Positions 18 through 20,000 of a stretch of DNA of 20,000 bases are shown in pieces. The DNA is from an uncultured virus (IMG/VR IMGVR_UViG_2061766007_000502). Taxonomy: Duplodnaviria; Heunggongvirae; Uroviricota; Caudoviricetes. The stretch lies in the IMG/VR virus record IMGVR_UViG_2061766007_000502; one strand, given 5' to 3'. A program made the position numbers and the translations under genes. Below the pieces are notes generated by a model, which was not told where the DNA came from, did not search any database, and was given only the letters and a program-made list of their open reading frames with translations. Every line of letters begins with the position of its first letter. Position 1 is the stretch's first letter.

Positions 18-2744
18 ATGTCAACAAAAACGTATGATTATCTTGATGATTGGTCTGATGTCAAGAAAAAAGCATCGGAGATTGCTGAAGCTGTACAGAA
101 AGATGCAGACAATAAATCTGTAACCAAAGATTTTGTAAATGAGAAGATTTCTGAGTACGAAGTGAAAGACAAGGAAGAGTCTGAAGCAGCATATGATGAA
201 ATCAATGACAGAATCACTCAAATCGTTGCAGGTGATGGTGAGTATTACACCAAGCAAGAGTCTGATGCTAAGTATGCCGATGTGAATAATGTTTATACTA
301 AAGCATAGGCTGACGAGAAGTTCCAGTTGAAAGGTGAAGGTGGTGGCGGTGACGCACCGGACCTTAGTGAGTATGCTAAGATTGCTGATGTTTCGGCAAA
401 CTTCCAGCCAAAGGGTGACTATCTCACAGATAGTGATATTGCTGGTAAGGCTAATGTAGATGATGTTTACACAAAGACTGTCGCTGATGATAAATTTTTA
501 ACAAAGGATTATACACCGGACCTTAGTGAGTATGCTAAGATTGATGATGTTTCTGCTAATTATCAGAAGAAAGGTGACTACCTGACTTCAAATGATGTTT
601 CTACTAAGGCAGATGCAGATGCAGTTTATACTAAGGATGAAGCAAATGCAAACTTCCAACCAAAGGGTGACTATCTTGTAGAGAGTGACATTGCAGACAA
701 GGCAGATGCTTCCACTGTATATACAAAGAGTGAAGCAGATGCAAAGTATCTTACATCAAATGATGTCTCTACAAAGGTAGAGAATGAAGACTTTAATGCA
801 TTGAAGAACAATATCTGGATTGGTGATTTGTCAACAGGTCTTTTCAAGACTGTATATGAGTCTGAGAATCACAGTGAGTCTATGATTTGGAATGAGACAA
901 CCGGCGGTGGTATTATGTATACAAACAAAGAGACTAATGTAAAGAGTTTTACTGGTGTAAATGATGCTAATGACCCTAATCATGTATCTGTTCAGTTGTA
1001 TGCAATTGACACAACTAATAATGTAAACAGAGGTCCTCGTATCAGTCTGACTAAGGATGGTGCATACTATTCTACAGATATGACAAGAGTCACAGAAGAA
1101 TACGAGATTGTTACTAAGATTGGTTTGAGTGACTATGCTAAGACTTCAGAAGTTGCTGATACATACCAGCCAAAGGGTGATTATCTGACAGAGCATCAGT
1201 CTCTTGAAGAGTATGCTAAGACAACGGATGTTTCTTCTGCACTTGACGAGAAAGCAGACGCAAACGAGACTATTAATGCTCTTGAGTCAAAGGCAAATAA
1301 CTCTGATTTGCTCATTGCTAAGTCTGAATGTGACATGTTGAAAGCAAGGATAGAGTACCTTGAAGAACTTATTGCTGAATATCTTCCAAGTGCTAAGTCC
1401 GAGATGATTAACGACGGCAAGATTGACGATTTGGATTCAAACAACACAGCAGTTGAAATCTTAGAGCCTATGAAGAGTGTACATATTCCTGAGGCAACTG
1501 TTGCATATACAGTCAATGTTCCTCTTGACGATGATTCTACTGTTGAGTTCACAAGTAACAAGTTGGCTTATATCAACAACACAAGTGAAGAACCGGTAAG
1601 TGTAACATTCACTCGTGATGTTCCCGAGTCTGAAAGTGCATCATCATCTAATGCTACTGTTTTTACAACCGGTCAGTTTGATACAATTACATTGGAGAAC
1701 CTTTCTGTTTCACAGAAGGATACAGAAACCAATACGGTCAAGAATGTTGTCATTACAGAGAATAACCAGAAGACAGTTTCATTGACATTGAGTTTTGCAG
1801 ACGGTGCTAAAATCACTAACGATTCTTCTTGTCCTGTGACTATTACGAATAAGACTGCTGTACCTGAGGATGCAGAGCCAATTAGTTCAACTATCGTTGC
1901 TCCATACAGCACAGTGACAGTTTCTGGTGGTCAGTTCAATGTTCTTGAGTCAACTGTAAGTGATGATACACTTGTCATCAACAAGGCTGTACATATCAAG
2001 AAACTTGTAGTGAACAAGGGTAATGTAGTTGTCAAAGACTATACATTGGATGGTCATATTGATGAAATCGAATATGCTGATGCAGAAGCAGCATCAACTT
2101 ATAGTGTTGAACCTTATACTGTCGATGTTTATACTAAGTCTGACTGGTCTAAGGCATCAAGCACACCGGGTGTCTATAATGTTAAGAATGATATTGTAAC
2201 TACTAATAGAATTGCTCCAGGTCTCTTTGGAAGTTCAGCAAGAATCAAGCTCAACGGTAATACGGTTTCTTGTTCTGACTCAAACGGTGCATTCTTGCTC
2301 CGCGGTGATAGCCATTATATAATCGAGGATGGTACAATTGATGCAAGTGCTTACGGTATATGGCTCTCTGGTCCTGGTATAGTAGAACTCAAGAATGTGA
2401 CAATTATCGCAAGTGCTCATGCTCTTTACATTGAAAAGCCAAACGGTCAGATCACAACTACCGGTAACTGCTACTTCAAGGTTTATGATGACGATAAGCG
2501 CTTTGTTGCTAACTATCTTGATGCTACATATACTGGAGGTTGGACGAACGGATTCCACTTCGGTGTCGGAACCAAGTTCGAGGACTTCGACCCTATGAAT
2601 TCTATAGGTGAGCCTGGTGGTCCGGTTAATCTGCTTGACCCAGGTTACAAGACAGTTAAGACTATCGAGGAAATCGACGGTGAGACACATGACATCTACA
2701 CAGTTGTCCTTGATGAGACTATCGACCCAAACGAAGGTGAATGA
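18..2744 (+). CDS. 908-aa repeat-rich virion fibre/surface protein (code 15; one in-frame TAG at 306-308): N-terminal stalk repeats, short coiled coil, C-terminal beta-rich domain
   Basis: ORFs 18..308 and 327..2744 are in the same frame and are separated only by TAG plus 6 sense codons (YTKA-Q-ADEKFQLKG). This matches sibling repeats such as YTKTVADDKF and YTKSEADAKY. Repeated motifs DLSEYAK, FQPKGDYL and YLTEHQSL resemble fibre stalks of Bacteroidota phages. Ends TGA-TAA. Confidence 0.8.
355..676 (+). repeat. Intragenic direct repeats encoding the DLSEYAK / ANFQPKGDYL stalk units
   Basis: The 30-bp sequence CACCGGACCTTAGTGAGTATGCTAAGATTG is identical at 355-384 and 514-543. GCAAACTTCCARCCAAAGGGTGACTATCT occurs at about 396-424 and 648-676, with a further partial copy near 1166. 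Confidence 0.85.
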
Positions 2745-2759
2745 TAATCTATATTCTAT

Positions 2760-2818
2760 GGTAATGATATACTATTCTACAAAACGGATATGTATATCAT
2801 TACCTGTTTAAAAAACAG
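2760..2818 (+). terminator. Intergenic stem-loop (possible terminator or processing hairpin)
   Basis: Perfect 13-bp inverted repeat GGTAATGATATAC (2760-2772) / GTATATCATTACC (2792-2804) with a 19-nt loop. It is followed by TGTTT and a small CTGTTT-AAA-AAACAG hairpin, just downstream of the gene 1 stop. Confidence 0.5.
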
Positions 2819-2832
2819 AAAGATTAAAGAAA

Positions 2833-3540
2833 ATGAAACAAGCAGATATTTCACAGCAACTCGGTTCTTTAATAAACCAGACAAGCGGAATATACAATAC
2901 CGTAGCAGCAGATGAAGAAATTCCATCTGAGCTTCAAGAACCAGATCCGCTGTTTGTTGTCAAACATGACGATATAATGTCTTCATCAAGATCCGAAGCA
3001 CTCGCAAGCATATAGTACATAGCAAAGTCGATAATACCGGTAGAATATATCAATGATGATATGATTCAGAACAAGATGAAAATCGATGCAGTTTAGTTGG
3101 GCAATCTATACTATCAGCAGAAAATGACCAATATTATGTTACAGGCGGCGATGGATTAGGTAGCAAAGGGTGACACACAGCCGAGAATGTATGAAGTGGT
3201 GGATAAGTATCTGAAACGTGCTTAGGATATGTCTCAGCAAATCACTGATTTGCAGAATCAGTTCCGCAAATACTACATAGACTCTTATCTTGATATTGAA
3301 TCAAAGAGAAATATGGATATGGAAGATACCAAACTTCTCGGCAGTAATGTTGTGCATAAACAACAGGGACAACTCATGCAACAGGAACAAGTCATTGAAA
3401 ATAAGAATACAATGTTGGTTACTGATGACGGTTCTGTCAGAGTAGCCAGCAGCAAGCAGTCTGTACAGGAACTGAATAAACTGAAGATACAGAAAGCAAA
3501 GAAGATAAAAGAAGCAGAGTTTAAAGAAGTTGTGGAATAA
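2833..3540 (+). CDS. 235-aa putative terminase small subunit, T4 gp16-like (code 15; four in-frame TAG)
   Basis: Single frame with TAGs at 3013, 3094, 3157 and 3223, ending TAA. Read-through exposes QPRMYEVVDKYLKRAQDMSQQITDLQ, which resembles the PRxYEV...DLQ helix motif of T4-like gp16. Confidence 0.65.
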
Positions 3541-3563
3541 ATATAAAAAATATTTTTACAAAA

Positions 3564-4599
3564 ATGGCATTTAATATTGAATTACCTGAAAATCGAATAA
3601 AGAACGTTATATGTAGTGCAAATATTTCTGCTATGTATAAAGCGCTTGAGCCATATCTTACTGATACATTCAGTGACAAAACTGGTAAATTGTCTGATTA
3701 TGATATGTTTATGAAACATAATATAGATCGTAACCAAGTATATTTGCCAAAAAATATAGCAAATGACGGTGGTTGTGTTGCCGCACCTTATCTGGTATCA
3801 TATGGTTCGTTACAAGAAATCAAATTGACTGGCACAGGGCAGAGCGGCGTGACTGACATCCGTCTTGGCTCTCTCNNNNNNNNNNNNNNNNNNNNNNNNN
3901 NNNNNNNNNNNNNNNNNNNNNNNNNNNNNNNNNNNNNNNNNNNNNNNNNNNNNNNNNNNNNNNNNNNNNNNNNNNNNNNNNNNNNNNNNNNNNNNNNNNN
4001 NNNNNNNNNNNNNNNNNNNNNNNNNNNNNNNNNNNNNNNNNNNNNNNNNNNNNNNNNNNNNNNNNNNNNNNNNNNNNNNNNNNNNNNNNNNNNNNNNNNN
4101 NNNNNNNNNNNNNNNNNNNNNNNNNNNNNNNNNNNNNNNNNNNNNNNNNNNNNNNNNNNNNNNNNNNNNNNNNNNNNNNNNNNNNNNNNNNNNNNNNNNN
4201 NNNNNNNNNNNNNNNNNNNNNNNNNNNNNNNNNNNNNNNNNNNNNNNNNNNNNNNNNNNNNNNNNNNNNNNNNNNNNNNNNNNNNNNNNNNNNNNNNNNN
4301 NNNNNNNNNNNNNNNNNNNNNNNNNNNNNNNNNNNNNNNNNNNNNNNNNNNNNNNNNNNNNNNNNNNNNNNNNNNNNNNNNNNNNNNNNNNNNNNNNNNN
4401 NNNNNNNNNNNNNNNNNNNNNNNNNNNNNNNNNNNNNNNNNNNNNNNNNNNNNNNNNNNNNNNNNNNNNNNNNNNNNNNNNNNNNNNNNNNNNNNNNNNN
4501 NNNNNNNNNGTTAAGAATGGAATTTGCTCAGTAGTTACATATTATATTAATACTAATAGCGGTGATGATGGCGGTGATGAGGAAGGCGGTGGTTTATAA
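3564..4599 (+). CDS. Hypothetical protein resembling a Prevotella/Bacteroidales hypothetical family; middle lost in assembly gap
   Basis: The N-terminal 104 aa (AMYKAL..SDYDMFMKHN..VYLPK..GGCVAAPYLVSYGSL..VTDIRLGSL) recall a Prevotella protein family. The post-gap segment ends GDDGGDEEGGGL-TAA just before a terminator. Continuity across the gap is inferred. Confidence 0.55.
3876..4509. other. Assembly/scaffold gap (634 N)
   Basis: Run of N characters. Confidence 1.
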
Positions 4600-4613
4600 T
4601 CAATCACAAATAC

Positions 4614-4651
4614 AAAAAGAGAGAAGATTTTTAACTCTTCTCTCTTTTTTT
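4614..4651. terminator. Bidirectional rho-independent terminator between convergent genes
   Basis: AAAAAGAGAGAAGA-TTTTTAAC-TCTTCTCTCTTTTTTT: perfect stem with an A-run before and a T-run after, lying between the stops at 4599 (+) and 4653 (-). Confidence 0.9.
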
Positions 4652-4652
4652 A

Positions 4653-7600
4653 TCATTCAGTTATAAAAATGTTTCCGCCTCCAGTATTCTTTATCACATT
4701 GCCGTACTTATCCATACAATACAGTTCTATTGATTGAGAACCAAGTGTATTAGGTCTTACTGTTAGAATCTTATTCTTAGACTCGAACAGAAGCAATTTC
4801 TCATAATTGCTTTGTCTTTCTTTCCAGTTAGTATTATCTTCTATCCCGTAAGTTTTCCATTTCCACAGAGTCTTATATACATTATCTTCTATGAGAGTCT
4901 TCCCTGTATCTTTATCATAACCGTCCGGATAAGGAATATTAGGCACTACAATCACACATCTGTTCTATCCTATCGTAACCGGATAGTCTGTGTACTTCCA
5001 AAGAGAAGCATCAATAGATTGTATATCTTCCCAAATATCTTTCAGAGAAACCGGATCAAACTTGGCAATAGTTGCAGAATAAGTATCATCGAAATATGAA
5101 TTGAACATGAGTTGTCTCTGGTTGTAATTGACAGTAGTGTTCATTGTATAGTATTCATAATTTCCATAGATGAATATATTCTCTGCTGCATCGCTGTTCA
5201 CTCTTAGTGTGTATTTGACAGGATCAGTATGTACTGGTGTTATGTACATACTCAAATCAGGATGAACGTACATACTTGAGTCTTGTGCATCAGAATCGGC
5301 ATATTTATATACATTGATATTATGAAGTGACTTTATGTATTCTGTGTCTATATTGCCATCAAGTTCATAATAGCATACAAACTGATTGTTATCATTAGTT
5401 GTATTCACATAGTCAAGAACTCTGTATGCAGTCTCATTGTGGAATATTCTCTTATCACCATTATTACCTTCAATGCAAAACTTAATCATACTGTCAGACG
5501 GGAACAACTGATAGTCATTACCCGAACCACCAGTCTTTGATTGCGGATTCAGATATACATAACATCTTCTTTGTACATTGCCGGATGAATTGATAGATAT
5601 ATCATTTACAATAGTTGTACTGCTGTCTATCACTTCTCTTGAAGCATTGATAACATACAGCGTGACATTATTTGTAACATCATTTATGATATTCTTATAA
5701 GGTCTCAGTGCAGTCAATGGTGAATCAAGTACTATCTTATGATTGGTTCTGTTATATGACTTTATTTTTATAGGCTCTTCAGTCTCATATAGTATAGACT
5801 GCAGATTATCATCATATAGACATAGACTGACCTATCCGAAATTGACATATATTTCCTGCTTGTTCGGATTATTCACATTCATAGTCAACGTAGTCGTTGT
5901 ATCAAAAGAAATAGTCTCTACTGCTTCTGTCATATTCGTCAATATCATATAGTCATTTGCCTTAGGTGTGTCTATGGCATAACTTATGTTATTGTATGTG
6001 ATTGTATTGTCGTCTATGATATGTTCTGCATTGTATATCTTGTAATTCTAAGGGAATAATGCACTGCTGTCAGTCATAGACAGTATTTCATCAATCTCAT
6101 CAGTACTCATATCATTAATGCTATGATGATCAACATTACCGATGAAGAAATCATCACTGTTTCTTGAATGATCCTGATTCAATATAATGTCTATTGACAC
6201 TCTTTTGGTCTTTACAGGACAGACATCGTCACTCTTGTTAGTGAATATATTATTCCATGCATCATAGGCATTGACTGTGACTGTATAGTTTCCGAGTCTA
6301 TTGACCGGAATGTCAATCTTATCATTTATCGTCACATTAGCATTGACTGCATCAAAGAGTTCCGTAAAATCTCTCTTAGTACCGCTTACTGGAGTATATG
6401 TGTATATTCTCGTTCTCTCTGACTTATATTTGTAATTGACTGAGATTTCCTGTTCACCGTAATCTTCTCTGTTCGGATCATTGAACTCGATTTCTGCTCC
6501 TATACAGTATTTCGGCTGTGAGTTCTGCTCACGGTTCCTGAATTTTATAGTTCCAGATAGTATCTCAAGGACATATTCATCCATAGTATTGAATGATGCT
6601 GTATCTTCATCAGAATTGAGATTAGTCGGCTTGTAACCCTTTATAATGAACAACGGGAGATTCCACTTGTTATTCTGAGAGTATATGAACTGCGGAACAG
6701 AATTTATATAGTCAGGTGAAAGTGTTATATAACTCTTTGCTTTTATCACTTTCTTCTCACCCATGGCATTATCGGGGAAATAGGTGAACTGTACATAACT
6801 GTTACCTTCATACATCTGCTCTTCAAGAGATGTCTGCATAACCGTAATAGGCTTAACAGACCAGACTATGTTTCCGACAGGATTGTTATCAGAACTCCAT
6901 TCACCGTTTATTCGTCTCAGATTTCCCTTCTTGATTTGTATTATAGGAAGTTCGCCGGAGTCTATCTCTGATATTCTGAAAGAGTCGTCCCAGAAGATGA
7001 TTTCACCATCATTTACTACTATCGGATTAATACTTGAATCGACAGAGGCAAACTCATACAGAGAGCCTGTGCTTGCATTATTCAAATCAAGAGTGAACTG
7101 ATACTCATCAGCAACTGTCAGAGCACCGAGCGGAGCAGACTCATAGACAGTGACAGACTCTCCTGATACATTTACATTATGCGAAGAGTCATATCTGATG
7201 AACTGCTCTATTGACATATCTTTATAATCTTCGAATGTCACTGAACAATATTTCTTCAACTGTCTTGGATCAGATTCATCCATTCTGTCGATTTCACTCT
7301 GCGGATATACAGTATGTGCAAATTCATTAAGAGAACATTGAAGAATGGCAGACGAATCCATAAACGGAGTCACCTGCTTGACATTGGGAGTAAACACACC
7401 AGTATTCTGAATATCACGGAACTCGTGTGCAGTTGTATATCCTACTGTCTTTATTCTCTCAAGTACAATACCTTCACCGTTTATGTCTGATATATAGCAA
7501 TTGACACCGAGAATGTATCTCTCAAGCCACTGCTTTACTGAATACAGTTTTGCAATCACCTCGTCAGTACGGTAATCATATACATTATGAACAGAAGGAA

Positions 7601-9650
7601 TGTCATTGGCATCATAGTAACCGCTGCTGCTGTTATTGCTCTATGTCACTTCTCTGCCGTTGTTTTCATATACAAAAGGTAGTTGTTCTTCACTTTCTTC
7701 ACTTATTCTCTGCATATGATATATCATAGACAGTCTGTTCAGTTTCCTGTATCTTTCATACTGCTCATAATCAATACCGTAGTTCTTCAGTGTATTCTTT
7801 ATAGGATTACCGGTAGATGTCTCATAGTTCTGTATCGCTACATACTTGGTATTGTCATTAGTATCTTTGATGCTATACCACTCCTTGAAAATCAAGTCTT
7901 GATAGCCGAGATAACGTATCGCATTGAAGAGTGCCTTGTATGTACCGACATATGGAAATATCTCATCATAGTACAGGAACAGTTCTTTGGATTTCTTGTT
8001 GACGATTCTCCAGTCTATACCCTGTTCGTGAGGATCCTGTGATTTGAATATATTAGGGAATTTAATAGGATCAGGTATTCCGTAATTGCCCAGGACGGTT
8101 CTGAATCTCTCATCTTCTCCCTCTGCTTCGACAAAGAACTGTATAGCACCTATGATGAATTCTTCATCTGTCTCTATGTTCCTGATGAATATACCCATTA
8201 TATTCTCATAGCATCCTTCTTCCTTTGCTTCAAAGCCGATAGTGAAGAACATCGGAGAACCGTCACCATAATCTTCCATCTCATCAGCAGTCATTGTATA
8301 AATACTGCTTTTCTTAGATATGTTGAGTTTATCTTCAGTAGTAATGAACTGCATTTCAGAATTATCCTGAAAATGAAAATGCATTCTGAACGTCTCTTGA
8401 TTATCAGAATCTTGAATATTAGGATATCCATATACAGTCTGACCGGTTTCAGAGTCAGTATTCTCAGAAACAACTATAATGGTCTGTGAAGCAATGAAAT
8501 CGACAGACACTTTGTCCATATAGTAACTGCCGACATATTTGACATAAGGGAACTGCTCTGCTGGAATATTATATTTCATAAGATACAATGGAGCTGTCTG
8601 TATGCGAGCAAATGCATCATCTTCTATTATATCATCAAATGAAGTCTCAGTCACTAATGTCTATGAGAATATATCTGATGTAATACCGTATTGACTGTTG
8701 TTGTTTATATAGTCTTGCTCACTGAGTTCATCAAGGAAGTCTTCCGGCACATTGAACGTATTCTGCTATACAAGACCTTCAAAAGCACTTCTGTCAATAG
8801 ACTGGTTCATCCTGAACAAATCTATGATATCATAGTCCTGTGATACAGTCTCGTAACCGTCAAATACAGTGATGAGCACTTTGTTACTGCTGTAATCAAC
8901 AGTCTCACCCTGATAGTTATCTGCATCTTTCGTGTATTTGTATGAGAAGAATATAATATCATATACATCATCAAGCCTGTAATAATCACTACCTTCTATC
9001 TCTGTATAGACATCATCATTCTCGCCGGTCTTAGTCAAGTCATACAGATAATGATGATCAGCATCCTTCAGATATATCTCATGGAAATATTCATTACTAT
9101 CATTATTGAGATGAATCTGTCCGGGTTCATCGACTACGATGTTCAGTTCATTGGAGATTTCCTTGATTATGCATTTACTATCATTTACATCGGCTGTGAC
9201 AGTAAAGTATGTACAATTAAGGTTATTAGCAAATGAATATGTGAACTCGACAGTATAGTAACCGCCGGTATTGTATTCTACTTTATATCCGTTTGCTTCT
9301 GAAGACTAATCATAGTTATGTATGGTAATTTCGGATGTGGCACCGGCTGTGCGGTAGAATTTGATAGTCTGTTCATTAAGGTTGCTGACACGTACGGAAT
9401 ATATCTTTCCTGTCTGTATCTAAATTCTTGATGTAGTTTTCTTACTACCGCTGGAAGTACCATCATCGAACTTCTCATTAAGGTTATTATCCGGAAACAA
9501 CTCAAAATGACCTCTCGGATTCCGTATGAATGCAGAATACACCTGATCGGCGGGAATGATTTCCCACGTCACAGAATACTGCTTCTTCATCAGAATCTCT
9601 TTTCCATCTCCGGTAAAGAATCTAAGCGAATCAATTCCTAAACTTCTCAT
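4653..9650 (-). CDS. 1665-aa baseplate-associated structural protein with a P2 gpI / T4 gp7-like segment (code 15; eight in-frame TAG)
   Basis: Six listed ORFs share one frame. I read each gap between them and found only TAG (at 9420, 9306, 8766, 8661, 7641, 6048, 5832, 4965), never TAA or TGA, until TGA-TAA at 4655-4650. The motif YVGTYKALFNAIRYLGYQDLIFKEWY resembles gpI-type KGTxxAxxxxxxxLGY..xEWW. It lies downstream of the gp6-like and gp25-like genes. Confidence 0.8.
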
Positions 9651-9653
9651 CAA

Positions 9654-9908
9654 TCAATTAATAAGTTTTGAGTTTTTAGGGAAGACTATAGCATATGTCA
9701 GTTTTATCTGTCTGACAGCATTAATGAGATATTCTATGAGTCTTTCAATCTGTCTGAAACTTGTGTCTGTCCTTGAATTGGCAAACATCTCAGGAGAGAC
9801 TACATTTTGTAAAATATGTCTCTCATAGTCATAGCCTTTACTCTTATAGTCATCATAAAGGTGATCAGTTACTTCAGTCAATGAAGTCTTATTCAATATT
9901 CTCGGCAT
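9654..9908 (-). CDS. 84-aa hypothetical protein in baseplate operon
   Basis: ATG..TGA ORF that fills the space between the gp25-like gene and the 1665-aa gene (3-nt gap to the next ATG). No TAG. Confidence 0.75.
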   Translation of the reverse strand: MPRILNKTSLTEVTDHLYDDYKSKGYDYERHILQNVVSPEMFANSRTDTSFRQIERLIEYLINAVRQIKLTYAIVFPKNSKLIN

Positions 9909-9933
9909 AGTTGTTTCCGTTTCTTCAAAAATT

Positions 9934-10308
9934 TTACTCTTGGTTAACTAAGATACCAAGACATTTCTTCTGGTTTATAACAATGTCAATGACAGCATAC
10001 TCATATGCAGCACTGACATCATGACCGAATGAAATATCCGCATACACAGTCCATTTGTCTGTGTTGAACTTGACATACCTTGCAAGTGCAGTATTGACTG
10101 TATATAACATCTGCTGTTCGGAATACCTTAACTGAAACAGATATTTCTAAAGGTCTATTCCGAAATCATATGATCCAAGCACATTACCCTGTCTTGTTCC
10201 GAGAACCATTTTTATTTGCTGAAGAATTTGCTCTGCTTCGTCTTCAGTTTCCATCTTGTCCTGATAATTAATATCAGAAGGCAATTTGCAGTAAATTTCC
10301 TTAATCAT
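9934..10308 (-). CDS. gp25: 124-aa gp25/gpW-like baseplate (sheath initiator) protein, absent from the ORF track (code 15; TAG at 10147-10149)
   Basis: Translation MIKEIYCKLPSD...EQILQQIKMVLGTRQGNVLGSYDFGIDL-Q-KYLFQ...LGILVNQE-TAA. The size and the LxTxxG....xFGxxLxxxLF motif fit gp25. Its ATG overlaps the upstream stop (TGATG). Confidence 0.8.
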
Positions 10309-12218
10309 CAGTCAATCGGATTGTCAAGTGATAATTTTGTATTCTGTGTGTATGATGTCACGTTCATATTGAATGCTGAGTTGTACTCAGATGACTGTAT
10401 TTCAGAGTACTCGACACCGTCTGGTGATGTGAATCCGCCTCTTATCAAAGGCAGTATGTCACGCACTTTCTTAGTGACACCGCTTGATGACTTGTAGTTT
10501 CTTGTCAGGATAATGTCACCGTACTCATCTATTCCATAGAACCCATTCTGTCCGTATATAGTCTGGTTTTCTACATCAGCATCAAACCATGCCTTTACCG
10601 AATCCACTCCCTCGACTGATTCGAACAGTGCAGTGATATCAGACAAAGGAATCATATCCTTTCTTGTCTGCTCTATGAAGTAAGTCGATAGTTTATGAAG
10701 ACAATCTGTATATACAGACTGCTTGTTATAACCTTCCCATAGTTTCATATTGACATTCACTGAGAAACGTGCAATCTTAGGTGAGAGTAAACGGTTCTCC
10801 ATAGTGATTATCTTCTGACCTGAGTTCTCTATCATATCAAGTATATTGAACTGCTCTTCCTCAGAAAGAGTGAACAGTTTCTCGTCACAGTTGAAATAAT
10901 TGTCTCCGGATGATATTCTCTTTGCAATGTCCGGAATAAGAAGTATATATACCGTATTGTCAGAAAGATCAGTCTCATCTACATTGTTTTTCGCAGTATT
11001 CATATTGTCAATTGCATTGACTACTTTCTGGTACATTTCCTGAGACTCTTGTGCAGACTCGCCGAGTTCGGCAACGAGTTCGGTCCATTTCTGATACACA
11101 TCATTATATACATTCTGAGCACGGTCGTACAACACTCTTGCTGCAACATTCGCATCCTTTGTTGAATAACCCTTTACAATCTCTATTGTAGAGAACATAT
11201 TCATTCTCTTGAAGAAATACTTGTAGTTCATCTCATTCGCAAGCACTGATGCTCTTGAAACATGCGGAGCTATCATCTGTGTCAACGTAACATCTTCAGA
11301 TGGAGCACCGAATATCAGAGACGTGTTCATTTCTATATAGAAATTCTCATTAAGACTAACCGGTTCTCCGTCTGCAAGATAGCCGGTTCCGGTAATTTCC
11401 CATGCATCATCAGTGCTGTTCACGAACGACTTTCCGAGATTGCCTGCAAGTCCGTCTGTTATCACATACTCACAGAGAATAGTCGAACCCTCCGGCGGAA
11501 CATCACCCATGTCATAGTTACCGAAGAAAATATCGATACCGCCGGTAAGACCAGTCTTGACAACTACGCCTTTCTGACAATATCCGAGATCAAGCAACGA
11601 CTTGACAATATCCCATCTCTCACCATTCACATACACATTAATGAAGTATTCCTCTATCTCAGAATAGTTTCTCTCGCTGAAGTTGTATGACTGGAGAACC
11701 TCACCGGTTCCAGTAGCACGCTGGTACTTCATCACACCCTGAATGACATTTGCATCAATATAGTTGCCGGCATTCATTGTGACTTTAGCCGTATCAGCAT
11801 TGAATAGGATGATATATGATGCTCCGTTTATCTTTGAGACAATCTTCACTTTGTTGGGAATATAACAAACCTTGCCATCATAATCCTGATTTCCCTGATT
11901 CTTGAATTTGAGTCTGATAGCGGCACGGGCAGATATAGGTCTTCCTGACTCGTGACCTGTCATCTGTGCAAGTCCCTTGATCTGATCAGGGCGATATGCT
12001 GTCTTTATATTGAGTCCTGTTATGGAATCTTCTATATAATAGAATATCATTCTGCCCATATGAAGCACTACGGACAATATCTGTGCAAACGGAGAAGCCA
12101 TAGTAAACTGCTCTTTGGTCTGATTGTAACTCTAACGGACCCAGTTCAGTGCATCGTCCCATAGTTCCTCATACTTGATTCTATTCAACTTGAATATTTT
12201 TAAGTCATACATCGACAT
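10308..12218 (-). CDS. gp6: 636-aa baseplate wedge subunit, T4 gp6 / P2 gpJ-like (code 15; TAG at 12132-12134)
   Basis: Read-through extends the 597-aa ORF upstream to MSMYDLKIFKLNRIKYEELWDDALNWVR-Q-SYNQ. Features typical of gp6/gpJ: SPFAQILSV..IEDS..NIKTA..IKGLAQMTGH, IFFGN..G.VP, Y..TDG..GN and SVEGVDSV. Alternative ATG at 12212. Confidence 0.85.
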
Positions 12219-12348
12219 AACGTGAAAAATGATAAATCCCGATTTTTTATTATTTATTTTCAGATTAATTCAAAACGGTCATTGACAATATATATTTTTA
12301 ATAATTCTGAAAATAAATACATTATAAAAGAAATACATTCATTTTACT
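12219..12348. promoter_or_regulatory. AT-rich divergent promoter region with an AATAAATA (T4 late-promoter-like) motif facing each gene
   Basis: ATAAATA lies at 12313-12319 (+), 29 nt before the ATG at 12349, and at 12257-12251 (-), 32 nt before the ATG at 12218. Confidence 0.5.
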
Positions 12349-14787
12349 ATGGATATAACATTATCAGAATTATTGACTAAATACAAGAACGGAACATTGA
12401 CGGATGAACATAAAGACATAACCATTAGCGATATATCTAATGTTTCATCTGTTGAGTATTTTCCGCCCATTGTAGAGAAACTGACGTTAAATGAGCTCAA
12501 TATCGATATGTATTTTTTTAATATTCTGACTAATGTCAAAGAACTTGTCTTATTAAACTGCAATACGTCGAAACACTGTATAAATTCATTACCGGAAGTT
12601 ACCAGCATTGAATTGAATGGAGGTCATATAGTATCAGAAAGTATCAGATATGCACCTAAACTCACTAAATTGGTTATATATAGTGAAACTACTGTCGATA
12701 ACAATTCCGTATATATCATCAATAACGGATTCAGGACACTGAAAGAACTGGAGTTGAAAAGACAGGTTTCAGCCGGTTATGTCGAAAGTGATTACACATA
12801 TAGCACAGGTCGCGGAAATTCAGTCAAAGCAGAAACAAGAGTAGGCAGTTTAGCAGTATTATCAGAAAGCGGTGGTATTCTGAAATGCAATAATGTCTAT
12901 AATCTTAATGCCTGGTGGAATGCTAATAAGAAGTATATAAGTGACAAGTGGTTTGTTGTGAATACCGGTATAAACAAACAAAGTTACTATGATACTTCTG
13001 TATTCTTTTGTGATAGCAGTGATTCCAATATCAAACAAATACCGTTCAATAAGGAAACCAACACATATTATGATTACTTTAACGGCAATCTCGTGAAAGT
13101 ATATCCGCATATGATATACACCACGCTGAAGAAATATGCATACTATGATGTTATAGCAAACAATATCAGCATTACATTCGGCAATAAGACATTATATATG
13201 CCAAATACCGGACATCCGAATGCCGATACACTTTGCAATGAAAAAGGAAAATTATTCAATCAGCCATCAACTGACTACATATTCACATTTTCTCTGAGTC
13301 TGACTTATAATGAACCGGAAAAGAGATACGAGAATGTGATATTGGTGCCTATGCTATCAGTACTCCGGAAATATCCGAATCTTTCATACAACTTATATAG
13401 TGAGTCTGATAATAACGGCGTAGTTTCTATTGATATCTCACTGTCAGAAAGCGGAATCTCAACACTCGCAAGAATACTCTCAGAATGTGAACTTGCTGTT
13501 GATAAGTTCAAAAAGAACATATACTCAACAGGAACCAATATAGTCTCATATACAGAAATAAAAATAGACGAAGAATCAAACAACAACAGACAAGTATTAT
13601 ATCAAGCATATGCAAGACTCATAAGCGAAAGTAAAAAACTCATATTCAGTTATGATGAGATTGCTGACAGCAACAAGAATGACAAGAAGTATGTAGTCAG
13701 CAAATATGAAGTCATTCCATATGTATATAATGAAAGTGATGATATTGCAAGCGGAGATGATTATGAACAGAATTGGAGATACAATCTCACTAAGATTGTC
13801 GCATGGAATTATAAAGACGGAAGACAGATTGCAATAACTGAAGCAGAGAATAAGATTTACAGAGGAGATGATGATGAAGATATAGTTGTTGATATAAACA
13901 ATGAATATGCAGAAGACATAAACGCAAGAGTAATTAACTATACAAACATTCCTTGCAGTTTCACTATGCCGGAAATCGTTATCAGGACTTGGCAGGACTA
14001 TAACGGTTATACTTGCAGACACACGAAACACGAAGCACTAATCAATATCTATAAAGACTATTTCATAAGAACAGGTGTCTATAAGCACAGATACTATGTG
14101 TGGAGTTTCATAGGACTTGAGAATTTCACTGACAATACAGTCATCGACAATCCGGACAATGATAGTAATTTCATGCCTTAGATTGAGCCTATTGAGACGT
14201 CTAAGTACACATATCAGTGCAGATACGAATATGTGTTTGAATATGATAATGAAAGTAACCATATTGTTGATTTTCACAGAACCGGTGAATATCAATATAC
14301 TATGATTCCGCCACTTATCTATAATGTTCCGAGTCCTGTAAATCCGGATGGCAGTGATGATAGTGGAGATGATGAACCAGTAATAATTATCGAACAAGAG
14401 CCTAAACTATATTACGGTTATGGTATCACAGATGCAGAATTATTGAGTATATTTAATGATTCCAGCAGAGATGGTGCTGAACTCTTATCTGATTCATATC
14501 TTCATGGCGGAATATATTATCCGGGAGAACAGAACTTATTGTTAAACAGACAGGGAATAAACAAGATAGTATGGTTTGCATATCCGGATGACATAACAAT
14601 TGACATTCCTTTGTATTGTGCTCAAGAACATTCTATTAATAGTTATGACTTTGAGTTATCGGCTTTATCACCTGTGATTGGCGGTTTCATGTACAGCAAA
14701 TCATCTGATGAAACTAAAAAGCACTATAATGTTGTTTATACTTTCCTTGAAGATAACACAATTATTACAAATTTAACTTGGCATTGA
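12349..14787 (+). CDS. 812-aa hypothetical protein with N-terminal leucine-rich-repeat-like segment (code 15; TAG at 14179-14181)
   Basis: ORFs 12349..14181 and 14233..14787 are joined in frame by TAG plus 17 sense codons, and the gene ends TGA. LxxLxL-type repeats: VEKLTLNE, VKELVLLNC, LTKLVIYS, LKELELKR. Confidence 0.75.
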
Positions 14788-14794
14788 ATTAAAA

Positions 14795-15772
14795 ATGGAA
14801 AAACCAACAGCAATTTCTAAATTATCAGCATTGCTTGATACAAGAGGAGCACGTAGCATAGATGGAACACGTTTTCCTAATATTGATGCATTATACGGAC
14901 CTTATATTTCTAAGGATGAAGCTTGGGAAGCCCTCAGTGAACAGACAGCAACTGGAGCATCTGCTCTGGTAATCGGCAAGACTGTCGGCATATTAGATGA
15001 AAACGGTTATATAACAGAATACTGGTTTAAACGCGGATGTACTTATAAAGAAGACTTAGTAGAGAAAGCAGGTTCTTCTGGCGGCGGTTCCGGCGATTTA
15101 GATGACATTACACAGAAAGTAGATATGTTGATGGATGAAGTGTTTCCACTTACTGTTGCTGTTGAAACTACTAATGCCGGTAACTATGAAGTCGGCTCAT
15201 ATGTAAATGGTGTATATAAGGGTTCTGTCAAACCGAACATCAAACTAAAAATCACAAGAAAGGATTCTGATATTGCATCAATTGCTACTGTCACTCCTTC
15301 ATCTGGACAAGTATCTTCTGATAACAAGACTATCACAGACTCTTCAATATACACAGGTTCTAAAACCATTAATGTCGATGTTAGTCAAAACGGACAGACA
15401 AAACGAGTGTCTCAAACATGGAGTTTTATGAACTATGTGTATGGTGGTGAAGTATCTTCTAAACCGGCAAATCCGTCAGCAGTCAAGACACTAATCGAGA
15501 CAACATGGGCAAATGATTCAAGCAAGCGTACATTATCTCAATCAAAAACAAAATCAAGTACACCGTTGTCTGCTAATAAGTACTATGTCTTTGCTGTAAA
15601 TGGTATTGTAAATCTTGTTGTACGTGATAATGCGACTAACGGTATTATAACCGGCTGTGATACTGATACTGTGGAATTAAACCGAGTTAACGGAAGTGGT
15701 TCAGATACATACACATATGTTATTGTAGAAAATTCATCTTCTGCATGGAATTTTAAAATTACTAATAATTAA
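14795..15772 (+). CDS. 325-aa putative tail/virion-associated protein
   Basis: Clean ATG..TAA ORF with no TAG. The N-terminal NIDALYGPY..IGKTVGI..ITEYWFK..DLVEK module resembles ones I recall from Bacteroidota phage tail proteins. It is followed by a Gly/Ser linker, a short helix and a beta-rich C-terminus. Confidence 0.75.
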   Translation: MEKPTAISKLSALLDTRGARSIDGTRFPNIDALYGPYISKDEAWEALSEQTATGASALVIGKTVGILDENGYITEYWFKRGCTYKEDLVEKAGSSGGGSGDLDDITQKVDMLMDEVFPLTVAVETTNAGNYEVGSYVNGVYKGSVKPNIKLKITRKDSDIASIATVTPSSGQVSSDNKTITDSSIYTGSKTINVDVSQNGQTKRVSQTWSFMNYVYGGEVSSKPANPSAVKTLIETTWANDSSKRTLSQSKTKSSTPLSANKYYVFAVNGIVNLVVRDNATNGIITGCDTDTVELNRVNGSGSDTYTYVIVENSSSAWNFKITNN

Positions 15773-15777
15773 TTGAT

Positions 15778-17973
15778 ATGGCAAAGTTGAAATTACCTTT
15801 CGAATTGGAAAAACCGAGTGAAGGTAAATATGTTACACAAGCAAGTGAAATCGGGTATGGTAGTGGCAGTGTCAAAGATGCTCTTGACAACTCAGACACT
15901 ACAGGTGGCAGAATAACACCTTTGCTATTTGGAGCGAAAGGTGATGGTGTGACTGATGATAAACATGCATTTATTGCTGCAATTGATGCACTTGATGAAG
16001 GCGGAACACTGTATATACCAAATGGTGTATATCTATGCGTGGATTTAGACATAACAAAGCCAATCAAAATAGTTGGTGAATCTAAGGAATATACAATAAT
16101 ATACAATAATACATCAGGTAAGCCTTGTTTCAAAAGTAGTATTAATCATCTTGAAATAAGCAATCTGCAATTTAAGGCAATACCATTTAATACTCCGGGT
16201 GTAGATAGAACAACAAATCTATATGAAGAGAATAATGGCAGAAGCGGATTGCTTTATAAGGGTGAATATGGCACATTCCATGATATTATAGGTGATGATG
16301 TAAGAACAATTATATGGCTTGGTGGTGATTTTCTTCCTCTTGGTGTAACAAAGAAAGGAAATACAGTATATAATATTACTTCAAGAAGAACGTGTCAATG
16401 TGTATTAGGTTGTCAACAAGAGAATTGTACTATTAGAAATATCAGCGGTTCATTCTATAATTTTAGAGATTGGAATTCACAATTACCCGATGGTGGTTTA
16501 GCTTATGATGATACAGATTTTGTTACTGGAAATAATCCTGCTCATATTGTATATATTACAGTAAGACCTGTACGTAAAGGCGGTATTTGGGAAGGAAATT
16601 TCTATGAGGATAAAGATGTAGATGAAATACCACACTCTGAAGTATATGATGGTTATTATTCTTGGAGTAAAAACATTAACATACATAATGTACATTCAGT
16701 TAGTGGCACTGAGGCACAAGACCATGCTTCATCAGCAGTGTCTATAAAGGGCATAATTGGAGGTGAATTAACTAATGTCACAGCAATAAATGCAAGTGCT
16801 GTTTGGATGTACTCGTTAAAAAACTATAGTGTGCATAATATTATATGTTTAAACAATACATCATATAGATTTGCTGTACATTGTCAAGATGACTTTCATG
16901 TAATATCTCTTAGTGAAAGAACTGGAGATAGACCAATATATTATAATAATATAATAGACACAGTCATATGTTCTGGTGGATATGCTTCTTTTAGAGCAGC
17001 CGGTGATGTTATATGTAAGATAAAGAATATGATATTAGATACCGATGTTGCTATACCAGGAGTTAGTTATCTATTTGGATTGTTTGGAGCATACTGGGCA
17101 GAGATTGATGGATTAAGAGTAACAAATCCAAATGCTGATTTGCCAAGTACAGGTGATATTGTATCGGGTGGTGTAGGTCTTGGTACTTCTCTTGGGTATT
17201 TAAGGGATGGTGTTTTCAATATAGCAAACGGCTTACCTTATATTGGAGGTTTAAATTCAGATTTTGAAATAAGTAATTGTACTCCAACTCATCCTTCATC
17301 TGTTCCTACTCCTACATCTAATAAAATGTATGAATTAACTCCTGTTGTAGAGAGTGACAGAAACATTCTAAGAGAAAATGATGTTAATGCTGGAGAAACA
17401 TTCTTGACAGCAAAGATAGACAATGATAAGCAAGTAATTATTACTCCATTGTTACTGTATGGACTAAAAGAACAGCATTTCAAATTGCTTATTACCAATA
17501 ATGGTTCTTAGGCTATTCCTGTTAGATGCGGCACTCATGACTTAACTCCTCAAACAAACCCTAACTTTGATTATGTGCAAAGTAATGTACCTATTGATTG
17601 GAGAGTCTTAGATGTTAATGATACATTTGAATATGAAGTATGGAAGAAAGATAGGATTATTACAGTTATATTTAATGGTAATGAATCTCCTTTTACTCAA
17701 TTTAACGGTTCACACCGCGATGAGGTTTGGGATGATAGAGTATATAATATTCACCTTACCGGAAGCAATAACACTCTTACATTTAATACAATACCCAATA
17801 GTCCATATGAAACAACTATATATTTAACAATAGATGCAAATGCTAATTCTGTAATTAATTTACCGTCTTCTTATAAAAGTACTGGACCTATAACTTTTGA
17901 AGATGGTAAAGAGTATGTCATTACAATTCGCAATGGTATCATTAATGTCAATAATATATATAGTCCGGAATAA
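15778..17973 (+). CDS. 731-aa tailspike/depolymerase with pectate-lyase-like right-handed beta-helix (code 15; TAG at 17509-17511)
   Basis: FGAKGDGVTDDKHAFIAAID..GGTLYIPNGVY is the Pectate_lyase_3-type beta-helix cap, followed by beta-helix-like sequence. It joins 17575..17973 in frame through TAG plus 21 sense codons and ends TAA. Confidence 0.85.
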
Positions 17974-18152
17974 ATTCAGCACAGCAGAATGATATAAAAT
18001 ATCAAATAAGTATGGCTCTGTATAATGGAAATTTCAATATACTGCTGAGATATTGTTGACTGGCTCAATAAATTGTGATTTTCCATAATAGCAGTCATCT
18101 TTTATCCATATATTTTGATAAATAATTAAAATGTTTAGTTTTATTTCAAGCA

Positions 18153-20000
18153 ATGATTAAGTTTTTCTACTCTACAACAGGAGAATATGATATTAATACA
18201 CTTCCAGATGTTTCTGAAAGTATTTTGATAGATGCGATGAATAACAAAATGATTGTGAACGGACAGGATGAATACTATTTCTCAAGACTGTCTGATTTAT
18301 GTTCATCGACAAATCAAAATCCATCAATAGGTCTATCACAAAAAGGCGGATATGACATGTTCTCTGTGATACAGTAGGCTATAGATGTTCTAAATTCTTC
18401 TGTGAATGTACTTGATGCATCAGTCATTGACCTTGACTCAAGTGTAAGAGAATTGTATTTGAGAGATATTCCTGTATTCCAAAGAAAAAATGAGAATGGT
18501 TATGTTCTTGGTAAAAATTGGAAGAATAATGCACCCGGACAGTATGCATTTGCTGAAGGATATTAGTCCAGAGCAAAAGGTATGGGTTCTCATGCTGAAG
18601 GTCATGGAACATCAGCAGAAGGTTCTTATTCACATACAGAAGGATCGACTACATATGCAATAGGTAATTTTTCTCATGCTGAAGGAGGACAAACTGCTGC
18701 TGCTGAGGAATATTCTCATGCTGAAGGGTTTAGAACTGTTGCAAATAAATATTCTCATGCTGAAGGGTATGGTCAAACAAGTAGATGTAAACTTACTCGA
18801 TTATATACTTCTGGTGACTATACAATTTATTTAGACACAAATGTATCAATAGGCCGTATACTCCGTTTATAGACAATGGATGAAGAAACAGGAGCAGAAT
18901 ATAAAATATATACAAATATAGGTCCAGTTGTTGATACATCAAATGGAGATTATCAAGTAAGGATATATCCGGCATTTTCTCATGATTTAGATATTGGCGA
19001 AAGGTGTTTTATGGTGACATCCGGTGCAGGAGGAGAATATGCTTCTCACTCAGAAGGTCTTGATACAACTGCTACTGGTGGCTATGGTTCTCATGCTGAA
19101 GGTAGAGAAACAATTGCTTATGGTGGTGAAGGTGCTCATGCAGAAGGTTATCATACTTTTGCAGGTGCTCATTCTTCTCATGCTGAAGGTAAATTTACAC
19201 AAACAACTAATGAAGCAGAGCATGCATCTGGTATATATAATAAATCAACAGAAAATGTAACACAATTCTCAGTCGGTGTCGGTACTTATAATAACCGTAA
19301 AAATGCATTTGAGATTGCTATAGACAGTAGCATATACATCAATGACTTGGGTGGTTATGATGGAACTAATGTAGATTCAAGTGTTGTTCAGTCTATACAG
19401 CAGGTAATCAAGACTGTCAATTCTTCTATTAATTCACTTGATGCATCAGTCATAGTTCTTGACTCAAGTGTAAGAGAATTGTACTTGAGAGATATTCCTG
19501 TATTCCAAAGAGAAGGTGAGAATGGTTATGTACTTGGCAGAGAATGGAATAATCATGCAGCCGGACAGTATGCATTTGCTGAAGGTTATGACACGTCTGC
19601 ATTTAGTAAATATTCTCATGCTGAAGGTTGGAGAACAAAGGCATCTGGTAATAATGCTCATGCGGAAGGTTAGGGAACAAATGCATCTGGTGCAGTCTCT
19701 CATGCGGAAGGTAGTCAAACAACTGCATCTGGTGCGCGCTCTCATGCTGAAGGTTAGCTTACAACTGCATCTGGTGCCAATGCTCATGCTGAAGGTATTC
19801 ATACAATTGCATCTGGTTTATATTCTCATGCTGAAGGTTTTCGTACAATTGCATCTGGTCATAGTGCTCATGCTGAAGGTTAGAATACAACTGCATCTGG
19901 TGATTATTCTCATGCTGAAGGATATGATACATCTGCAATAGGTGATTATTCTCATGCTGAAGGTTAGAATACAACTGCATCTGGTGATTATTCTCATGCT
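18153..20000 (+). CDS. Adhesin-like tail fibre with YadA-head-like SHAEG beta-roll repeats and a duplicated stalk module; 3' end outside window (code 15; seven in-frame TAG)
   Basis: One frame with TAGs at 18375, 18564, 18870, 19671, 19755, 19881 and 19965, and no TAA or TGA. It has 14-aa (S/A)HAEGxxTxAxGxx repeats, an FSVGVG..RKNAFEI connector and LDASVxxLDSSV heptads. Confidence 0.85.
18411..19589 (+). repeat. About 150-bp intragenic duplication (18411-18563 vs 19437-19589, offset 1026 nt)
   Basis: Both copies encode LDASVIxLDSSVRELYLRDIPVFQRxxENGYVLGxxWxNxAxGQYAFAEGY and align without gaps. Confidence 0.95.
19614..20000 (+). repeat. 42-bp coding tandem repeat array (at least 9 units, SHAEG repeats)
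   Basis: KCTCATGCKGAAGG....ACA...GCATCTGGT...... recurs every 42 nt up to the window end. A more degenerate array spans about 18545-19190. Confidence 0.95.

Follow-up and report, generated by a model that had tools for sequence, protein, structure and literature searches.

The stretch of DNA analyzed here, called the window, comprises 20,000 nucleotides of an uncultured tailed virus (IMG/VR record IMGVR_UViG_2061766007_000502) and carries 11 gene frames, g1 to g11, on both strands (Table 1). Judged from comparative sequence analysis, it very probably represents the block of late genes for baseplate and tail fibers in a Lak-like megaphage of ruminant-type gut samples, a phage in which TAG is a minor glutamine (Gln) codon (genetic code 15) and TAA and TGA end the genes. 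The GC content of the window was 36.6% (19,366 read bases). A GC dip at 3001-6000 (0.24-0.25) was rejected as a feature, as the denominator of the profile includes a run of N.

Table 1. Gene frames of the window with their in-frame TAG codons, stop codons and best family matches
Gene	Position	Strand	Length (aa)	In-frame TAG	Stop	Description
g1	18..2744	+	908	306-308	TGA	Tail fiber-like, repeat-rich; weak PHROG tail fiber match, phrog_23820, E 1.5e-4
g2	2833..3540	+	235	3013, 3094, 3157, 3223	TAA	Weakly small terminase-like, called gp16-like in the initial annotation; PHROG 445/735, E 2e-4 and 2e-3
g3	3564..3875	+	104	0		Readable 5' part, runs into N; no family match (PHROG and Pfam scans)
g4	4653..9653	-	1666	4965-4967, 5832-5834, 6048-6050, 7641-7643, 8661-8663, 8766-8768, 9306-9308, 9420-9422	TGA	Baseplate module protein; matches no named family (PHROG, Pfam)
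g5	9654..9908	-	84	0	TGA	Small conserved protein from ATG 9908; upstream extension from TTG 9959
g6	9934..10308	-	124	10147-10149 (residue 54)	TAA	gp25-like baseplate wedge protein; phrog_43, E 1.2e-5
g7	10308..12218	-	636	12132-12134 (residue 29)	TGA	gp6-like baseplate wedge protein; phrog_219, E 8.7e-14
g8	12349..14787	+	812	14179-14181 (residue 611)	TGA	No family
g9	14795..15772	+	325	0	TAA	No family (PHROG, Pfam)
g10	15778..17973	+	731	17509-17511 (residue 578)	TAA	Tailspike-like, pectate lyase-type N-terminal domain; Pfam PF12708, E 9.5e-11
g11	18153..20000	+	616	18375, 18564, 18870, 19671, 19755, 19881, 19965		YadA head repeat fiber protein, to the window's end; phrog_25468, E 9e-60; Pfam YadA_head, E 5e-9

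In-frame TAG codons and gene ends

Under the standard code (code 11), the window was split into 35 open reading frames (ORFs) of at least 80 aa, of which many are short and adjoin one another in a common frame. Once TAG was left open, these merged into the 11 gene frames, which fill the window. A direct count over these frames gave 25 in-frame TAG, no TAA and no TGA. One of the TAG codons, at 9948-9950, is codon 4 of the long form of g5 and lies 14 codons upstream of ATG 9908; it is probably outside the gene, in an extension that is not translated, because six of the seven listed g5 relatives start aligning at residue 18, which is this ATG. The remaining 24 TAG codons lie in eight genes on both strands (6241 codons), exactly the number given in an initial annotation of the window made from the sequence alone. 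Inside the genes, the stop words occurred off frame as 165 TAG, 407 TAA and 599 TGA, compared to 24, 0 and 0 in frame. The chance that 24 random nonsense hits are all TAG is (1/3)^24 = 3.5e-12, and with the off-frame composition as weights it falls to (165/1171)^24 = 3.8e-21.

Ten gene ends are visible, five with TGA, five with TAA and none with TAG, which also agrees with the initial annotation; one of the TAA ends, with uncertain frame, was read through the run of N. The missing TAG ends say little by themselves, as their chance would be about 0.2 if TAG ended 14% of the genes, as in the standard-coded relative G001 described below. Coding density, measured as the cover by stop-to-stop ORFs of at least 100 codons, was 0.80 with code 11 and increased to 0.93 once TAG was open. 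This gain of 0.13 compares to at most 0.03 in standard-coded relatives and to 0.33-0.52 in the Lak loci.

The alignments to relatives continue across the TAG codons. Sixteen of the 24 fall within tblastn alignments, and the subject stops within all high-scoring segment pairs (HSPs) to relatives were 595 TAG, 1 TAA and 0 TGA. In g4, with eight TAG codons, a single HSP to the contig L060 spans residues 2-1664, and the same gene is one uninterrupted 1833-aa code-11 ORF in L005, the G001 locus. The TAG of g7 lies inside a conserved protein, because the 60% identity to Lak phages covers residues 2-633. In g8, an HSP to L004/L060 with 26% identity, covering residues 59-667, crosses the TAG codon. 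At the level of predicted genes, these results establish that TAG is translated through in the window.

A second assembly was available for the probable source, the sequencing run X1. The Logan assembly of this run, made separately, had no differing letter over 644-3855, 4510-17003, 17050-18029, 18006-19379 and 19356-19896, so the TAG codons are not slips of one assembler. It uses the same reads as the window and is thus not independent of the sequencing, and its listed pieces miss the TAG at 306 and incompletely cover those at 19965 and 19881.

If TAG were nevertheless a true stop, the genes would be broken, as in a decaying or defective phage, or the TAG codons would be sequencing or assembly errors. 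The standard-coded state of G001, the closest complete relative, and the window itself, in which no suppressor tRNA was seen, would suit such an explanation. Decay or error would, however, also yield TAA, TGA and frameshifts, none of which was present in the gene frames; the second assembly of the source run was identical; and the sister lineage L060 has the same sparse TAG-only pattern, with 4, 4, 3, 2 and 4 TAG codons in five long frames. Essential baseplate genes would, moreover, fall into up to nine pieces. The true-stop explanation is therefore barely credible and close to refuted.

The TAG codons are unevenly distributed, with 17 per 1000 codons in g2, 11 in g11, none in g9, g5 and g3, and 3.85 overall. 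The initial description of the whole window as recoded was accordingly too broad, since g5 and g9, both complete, and the readable 5' part of g3 are without TAG. As it warned, standard annotation misreads genes here: code 11 fragments eight of them, with nine pieces for g4 and eight for g11. For this lineage, pipelines need to call genes with code 15 or with a caller that takes the code into account.

Residue at the TAG columns

For the assignment of the residue, the related loci were dereplicated to 28 clusters and the codon opposite each window TAG was read. In the nearest cluster, L060/L004, 14 TAG columns were comparable, with CAG in four and CAA in one. Gln thus occupied 5 of the 14 columns, 10-fold more than its background of 3.6% in the aligned residues of this relative (binomial P 9e-5). 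The window's own Gln codons face Gln in the nearest relative in 54% of cases, and other residues face it in 1.5-4%. The TAG codons of L060 are at other positions, with none at the 14 comparable columns.

The likelihood of each residue was calculated from substitution tables that the alignments themselves supplied. Gln ranked first with L060 alone (10.0 nats ahead of Ala, the next residue), with the three closest relatives (by 4.9 nats) and with all clusters (2.9 nats over Thr). For calibration, 300 random sets of 14 ordinary columns were drawn for each amino acid, and the test named the correct residue in 98-100% of them. In the reverse test, the window residues opposite 203 TAG cells of the cluster representatives were Gln in 67, Lys in 18 and Ser in 16, with a Gln background of 4.2%. 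Across 16 g4 homologues from the database (42-52% identity), Gln occurred at four of the eight TAG columns and was the most frequent residue at two. The column of the g2 TAG at 3094, in a gene with relatives in five clusters, contained CAG, CAG, CAA, TAG and TAG, and in an internal duplicate of g11 (about 85 residues, 60 identical) the TAG at codon 75 pairs with CAG at codon 417. Gln is hence the best-fitting residue at the aligned TAG columns, and the glutamine assignment of the initial annotation is supported by this fit, by the TAG-only interruptions, by the homology across the TAG codons and by the 1833-aa ORF of L005.

Several observations weigh against reading TAG as a translated Gln codon. 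In the nearest relative, the other 9 of the 14 columns contained Lys in three (AAA/AAG), Thr in two (ACT/ACA), Glu (GAA), Val (GTT), Ala (GCA) and Ser (TCA). Several TAG columns are variable, the g6 (gp25) column is mostly Glu in other clusters, with CAG in the two nearest, and the g11 internal duplicate also pairs the TAG at codon 138 with GAC at codon 480. Some Gln residues of the g4 database homologues may themselves go back to TAG codons, if the proteins were predicted with code 15. Eight of the 24 TAG codons have no outside homologue; for six of the seven in g11 the evidence is confined to the gene itself, namely, open frame, internal duplicate or repeat motif, and for the one in g10 from 153 further open codons, so that this TAG could separate two genes in the same frame. 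Scans of the window gave no tRNA and no Rfam match. Among the 40 strain variants listed of 842 variant places, none falls within a TAG codon, too small a part to establish conservation of the TAG codons among strains. The nearest complete relative, G001, uses TAG as a stop and is without a CUA tRNA.

With these columns, TAG could be a sense codon for another residue (such as Lys, Glu or Thr) or an ambiguous one. Pooled TAG columns over 59 loci contained Lys 47, Glu 37, Thr 23, TAG 20, Arg 18 and Gln 9, the gp25 column is mostly Glu, and in the published analysis of Lak phages the residue could not be decided for three clades (PMC8346664, section 14). The pooled counts were, however, not dereplicated and are dominated by 15 near-identical Lak records and many distant loci, for which reason they were set aside in favor of the dereplicated and nearest-relative counts. 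Given the enrichment of Gln in the nearest relative, the distance of every other residue by at least 10 nats with L060 alone and 2.9 with all clusters, the 67 of 203 Gln in the reverse test compared to 18 for the next residue, Lys, and the single transition that separates TAG from CAG, a residue other than Gln is improbable. The TAG codons of the window lie mostly at weakly constrained, polar positions, and the case for Gln comes from the close relatives.

Placement among Lak-like phages and their genetic codes

Lak genomes are about 476-660 kb in size and their host is Prevotella. Only by analogy with Lak would the window phage have a host in the Bacteroidota, as the initial annotation proposed. 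Against each of the 15 Prevotella phage Lak records in GenBank, the gp6-like protein of g7 showed 60% identity with 99% of its length aligned, and against six other huge uncultured phages 27-28% identity, in keeping with the initial suggestion of a Lak relative. In comparison to Lak-A2 and Lak-B1, identities were 60% for gp6, 47-48% for gp25, 55-60% for g5, 34-35% for g4 and 44% for g2, and the homologues of these five genes, including the inverted g2 homologue, are colinear with the window. In IMG/VR, 56 related loci were found, the closest by gp6 being L004 (79%, on a 7.2-kb contig), L005 and L006 (67%) and L007 (63%), and a metagenome scan with g4 yielded one relative, the 17.5-kb contig L060 of the L004 lineage. 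The window's own contig turned up neither in IMG/VR, by exact match of a 47-base word, nor in the metagenome scan. The contigs of the clade relatives measure 331-673 kb. The L060/L004 lineage has the same gene order as the window, with identities of 79% for gp6, 83% for gp25 and 52% for g4. A megablast search of 4600-20000 against 50,697 phage records gave zero matches.

In the gp6 tree, the window and L060 were sisters (support 96/100) within a clade of all Lak-like rows (100/99), far from the standard-coded outgroups. This placement, together with the identities and the gene order, assigns the window phage, on its predicted proteins, to the Lak-like clade. Neither the gp6 tree nor a tree of 2061 columns settled the branching among the window lineage, G001, L007 and the branch with the classic Lak phages. 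In a tree of 751 columns, G001 was joined to the window lineage with a Shimodaira-Hasegawa-like approximate likelihood ratio test (SH-aLRT) support of 91. The grouping of all recoded rows in one clade, named after the tree had been seen, was not rejected by the approximately unbiased (AU) test (p = 0.066).

The Lak phages (Lak-A1/A2, B1-B9 and C1; MK250015-MK250029; proposed order 'Grandevirales') share with the window the in-frame TAG and the use of TAA and TGA as stops, and their reading of TAG as Gln is published (PMC8346664; PMC11165621). 'Grandevirales' was defined on the whole proteomes of 23 genomes and described as uniformly alternatively coded, the coding capacity being 69% with code 11 and rising to 89% with code 15 (PMC11165621). 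The window differs in being less AT-rich, with a GC content of 36.6% compared to 25-27% in the Lak loci examined and 26-31% in published Lak genomes (PMC8346664), so the low GC that characterizes Lak is absent, and the higher GC and distinct lineage proposed in the initial annotation were both recovered. It also differs in the sparseness of the recoding. TAG made up 24 of its 212 Gln-type codons (11%; 3.85 per 1000 codons), compared to 43-45% (18-23 per 1000 codons) for Lak-A2 and Lak-B1 in the orthologous stretches. Recoding is similarly sparse in the L060 lineage (GC content 33%), where TAG accounts for 7% of Gln-type codons, or 2.6 per 1000 codons. Other code-15 gut phages, namely, crAss-like phages and the clades of Borges et al., read TAG as Gln within structural genes and genes for lysis in standard-coded hosts and are unrelated lineages, to which no homology was noted, without a search aimed at it; for crAss-like phages there is peptide proof of this reading (PMC9523058). 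The phenomenon was thus already in print for the Lak clade, as the initial annotation acknowledged. The window is a more GC-rich, sparsely recoded addition to the Lak-like megaphages, which extends them to a more GC-rich branch in ruminant-type gut samples, and the use of TAG for Gln is itself known.

Across the Lak-like clade, the share of TAG among Gln-type codons rises with AT-richness. It was 0% in L005 and L007 (GC content at third codon positions, GC3, 0.53-0.54), 7% in L060 (0.31), 11% in the window (0.32), 28-29% in L009 and L016 (0.16-0.24) and 43-45% in Lak-A2 and Lak-B1 (0.12-0.17). Such a graded share across related genomes could be used to study the stepwise takeover of a stop codon and leaves the known mechanism unchanged. 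For relatives of Lak, deep branches without recoding and a group with 'uncertain coding' have been published (PMC8346664, section 14), and close relatives with different codes are described in a preprint by Borges et al. (10.1101/2021.08.26.457843).

G001, the record behind L005 (IMG/VR; loci L066-L099), is 673,114 bp long, has terminal repeats and is rated complete. It belongs to the same Lak-like clade as the window, with 67% identity in gp6 and the same gene order. Its GC content is 40.7%, and opening TAG changed its ORF cover little, from 0.905 (code 11) to 0.918. Of its 470 stop-to-stop ORFs of at least 200 codons, 65 (14%) end in TAG, mostly with a short run-on, and its orthologous stretches (L005) contained no TAG. 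Five tRNAs were found (Met, Leu-CAA, Arg-TCT, Arg-CCT and Pro-CGG), none with the anticodon CUA. G001 is larger than the published 660-kb Lak and is an exception to the statement that all members are alternatively coded. The 15-kb fragment L007 has no TAG in its long frames and is therefore uninformative about the code.

We consider it possible, although doubtful, that a change of genetic code took place inside the Lak-like clade between modestly diverged lineages, the window with its sparse TAG for Gln and G001, with 67% gp6 identity, where TAG is a stop. If the sister placement of G001 and the window (SH-aLRT 91) is real, TAG recoding arose more than once or was lost in G001. A loss in G001 would be a reversion to the standard code, for which there is no described route. 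The preprint of Borges et al. (10.1101/2021.08.26.457843) proposes a path from low GC through the loss of the stop codon to a suppressor tRNA and recoded late genes; under either alternative the change would have come about without what this model expects to precede it, a low-GC genome losing its TAG stops. The trees do not choose between a single gain above standard-coded basal lineages, two gains or a loss in G001. The standard-coded 673-kb relative and the graded TAG share across the clade are the points worth following.

Candidate tRNAs for decoding TAG were predicted in other Lak-like fragments. ARAGORN predicted tRNAs with the anticodon CUA in two Lak-like fragments, G004 (L103:1501-1574), where it was the only tRNA match in 111 kb, and G005 (L120:1501-1575). 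The orthologous genes of these fragments contain 4-5 in-frame TAG per 1000 codons, and the 5' acceptor strand and 3' end of the CUA tRNAs resemble those of the G005 tRNA-Gln(UUG). In a further Lak-like fragment with 20 tRNA matches, G006, ARAGORN reported a tRNA with the four-base anticodon 'gctt' and no assigned amino acid (L122:1500-1573), which may be a frameshift-type tRNA or a miscall. A suppressor tRNA for TAG was reported in 38 of 51 Lak genomes, and release factor 2 (RF2) in some (PMC8346664; preprint 10.1101/2021.08.26.457843).

By analogy with the Lak literature and with these relatives, we infer that TAG in the window phage would be read by a suppressor tRNA encoded by the phage, and a phage RF2 may assist the reassignment. 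The TAG codons themselves most likely came from C-to-T changes of CAG, which would be silent under code 15. In the preprint, it is proposed that recoded stops delay the late genes until the phage has produced its own tRNA (10.1101/2021.08.26.457843), and TAG-bearing late genes of the window phage would likewise be made only once the suppressor tRNA is present.

TAG could also be read in two ways, as a stop early in infection or at low suppressor levels and as a sense codon later, which would make its decoding leaky or stage-dependent. This would refine rather than oppose the reading as Gln. The sparse and uneven occurrence of TAG across the genes, the late type of all window genes and the model proposed for recoded phages in the same preprint are compatible with it, but a 20-kb block of late genes cannot show timing. 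We regard stage-dependent reading as a tentative addition, possible but less likely than not.

Gene contents, strains and source samples

The sequencing runs containing the window sequence or close strains are labeled bovine gut or gut metagenome. The run listing comprised two candidate source runs, and 18 more rows from 10 other studies shared 0.32-0.44 of the window's words. No RNA runs were among the listed runs containing the window sequence.

Two regions differed between strains or assemblies. In run X4, the contig of a close strain jumps from 3613 to 4592, with 95 other letters between, and the skipped stretch is partly N in the window. The gene starting at 3564 and the sequence after it are thus a strain-variable insert between g2 and g4, because the X4 contig skips this stretch. 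At 19100-20000, the contigs of all four runs were joined, skipped or stepped back at many points within the g11 repeats of YadA type. The repeat number of g11 is uncertain or strain-variable, and the assembly at the window's end is less trustworthy.

In the fiber genes, TAG codons were found within repeats. The single TAG of g1 lies within a 'VYTK..AD.KF' repeat unit, and no relatives covering g1 were present in the fetched loci. Four of the TAG codons of g11 occupy the freely varying first place after 'HAEG' in its repeats. In IMG/VR, no relatives of g10 and g11 were found. GC3 was 0.18 in g10 and 0.16 in g11, compared to 0.37-0.44 in the baseplate genes, and together with the missing IMG/VR relatives this fits recently exchanged host recognition modules.

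In the baseplate block, the Pfam match of g6 to GPW_gp25 scored 21.6 bits, under the cut-off of 27.2. For g4, 93 homologues of 916-2916 aa were found. One of them, P0009, 40% identical to g4, is placed by its record on an 836,250-base contig; if this contig is a phage, it would exceed the largest phage genomes cited in the literature examined.

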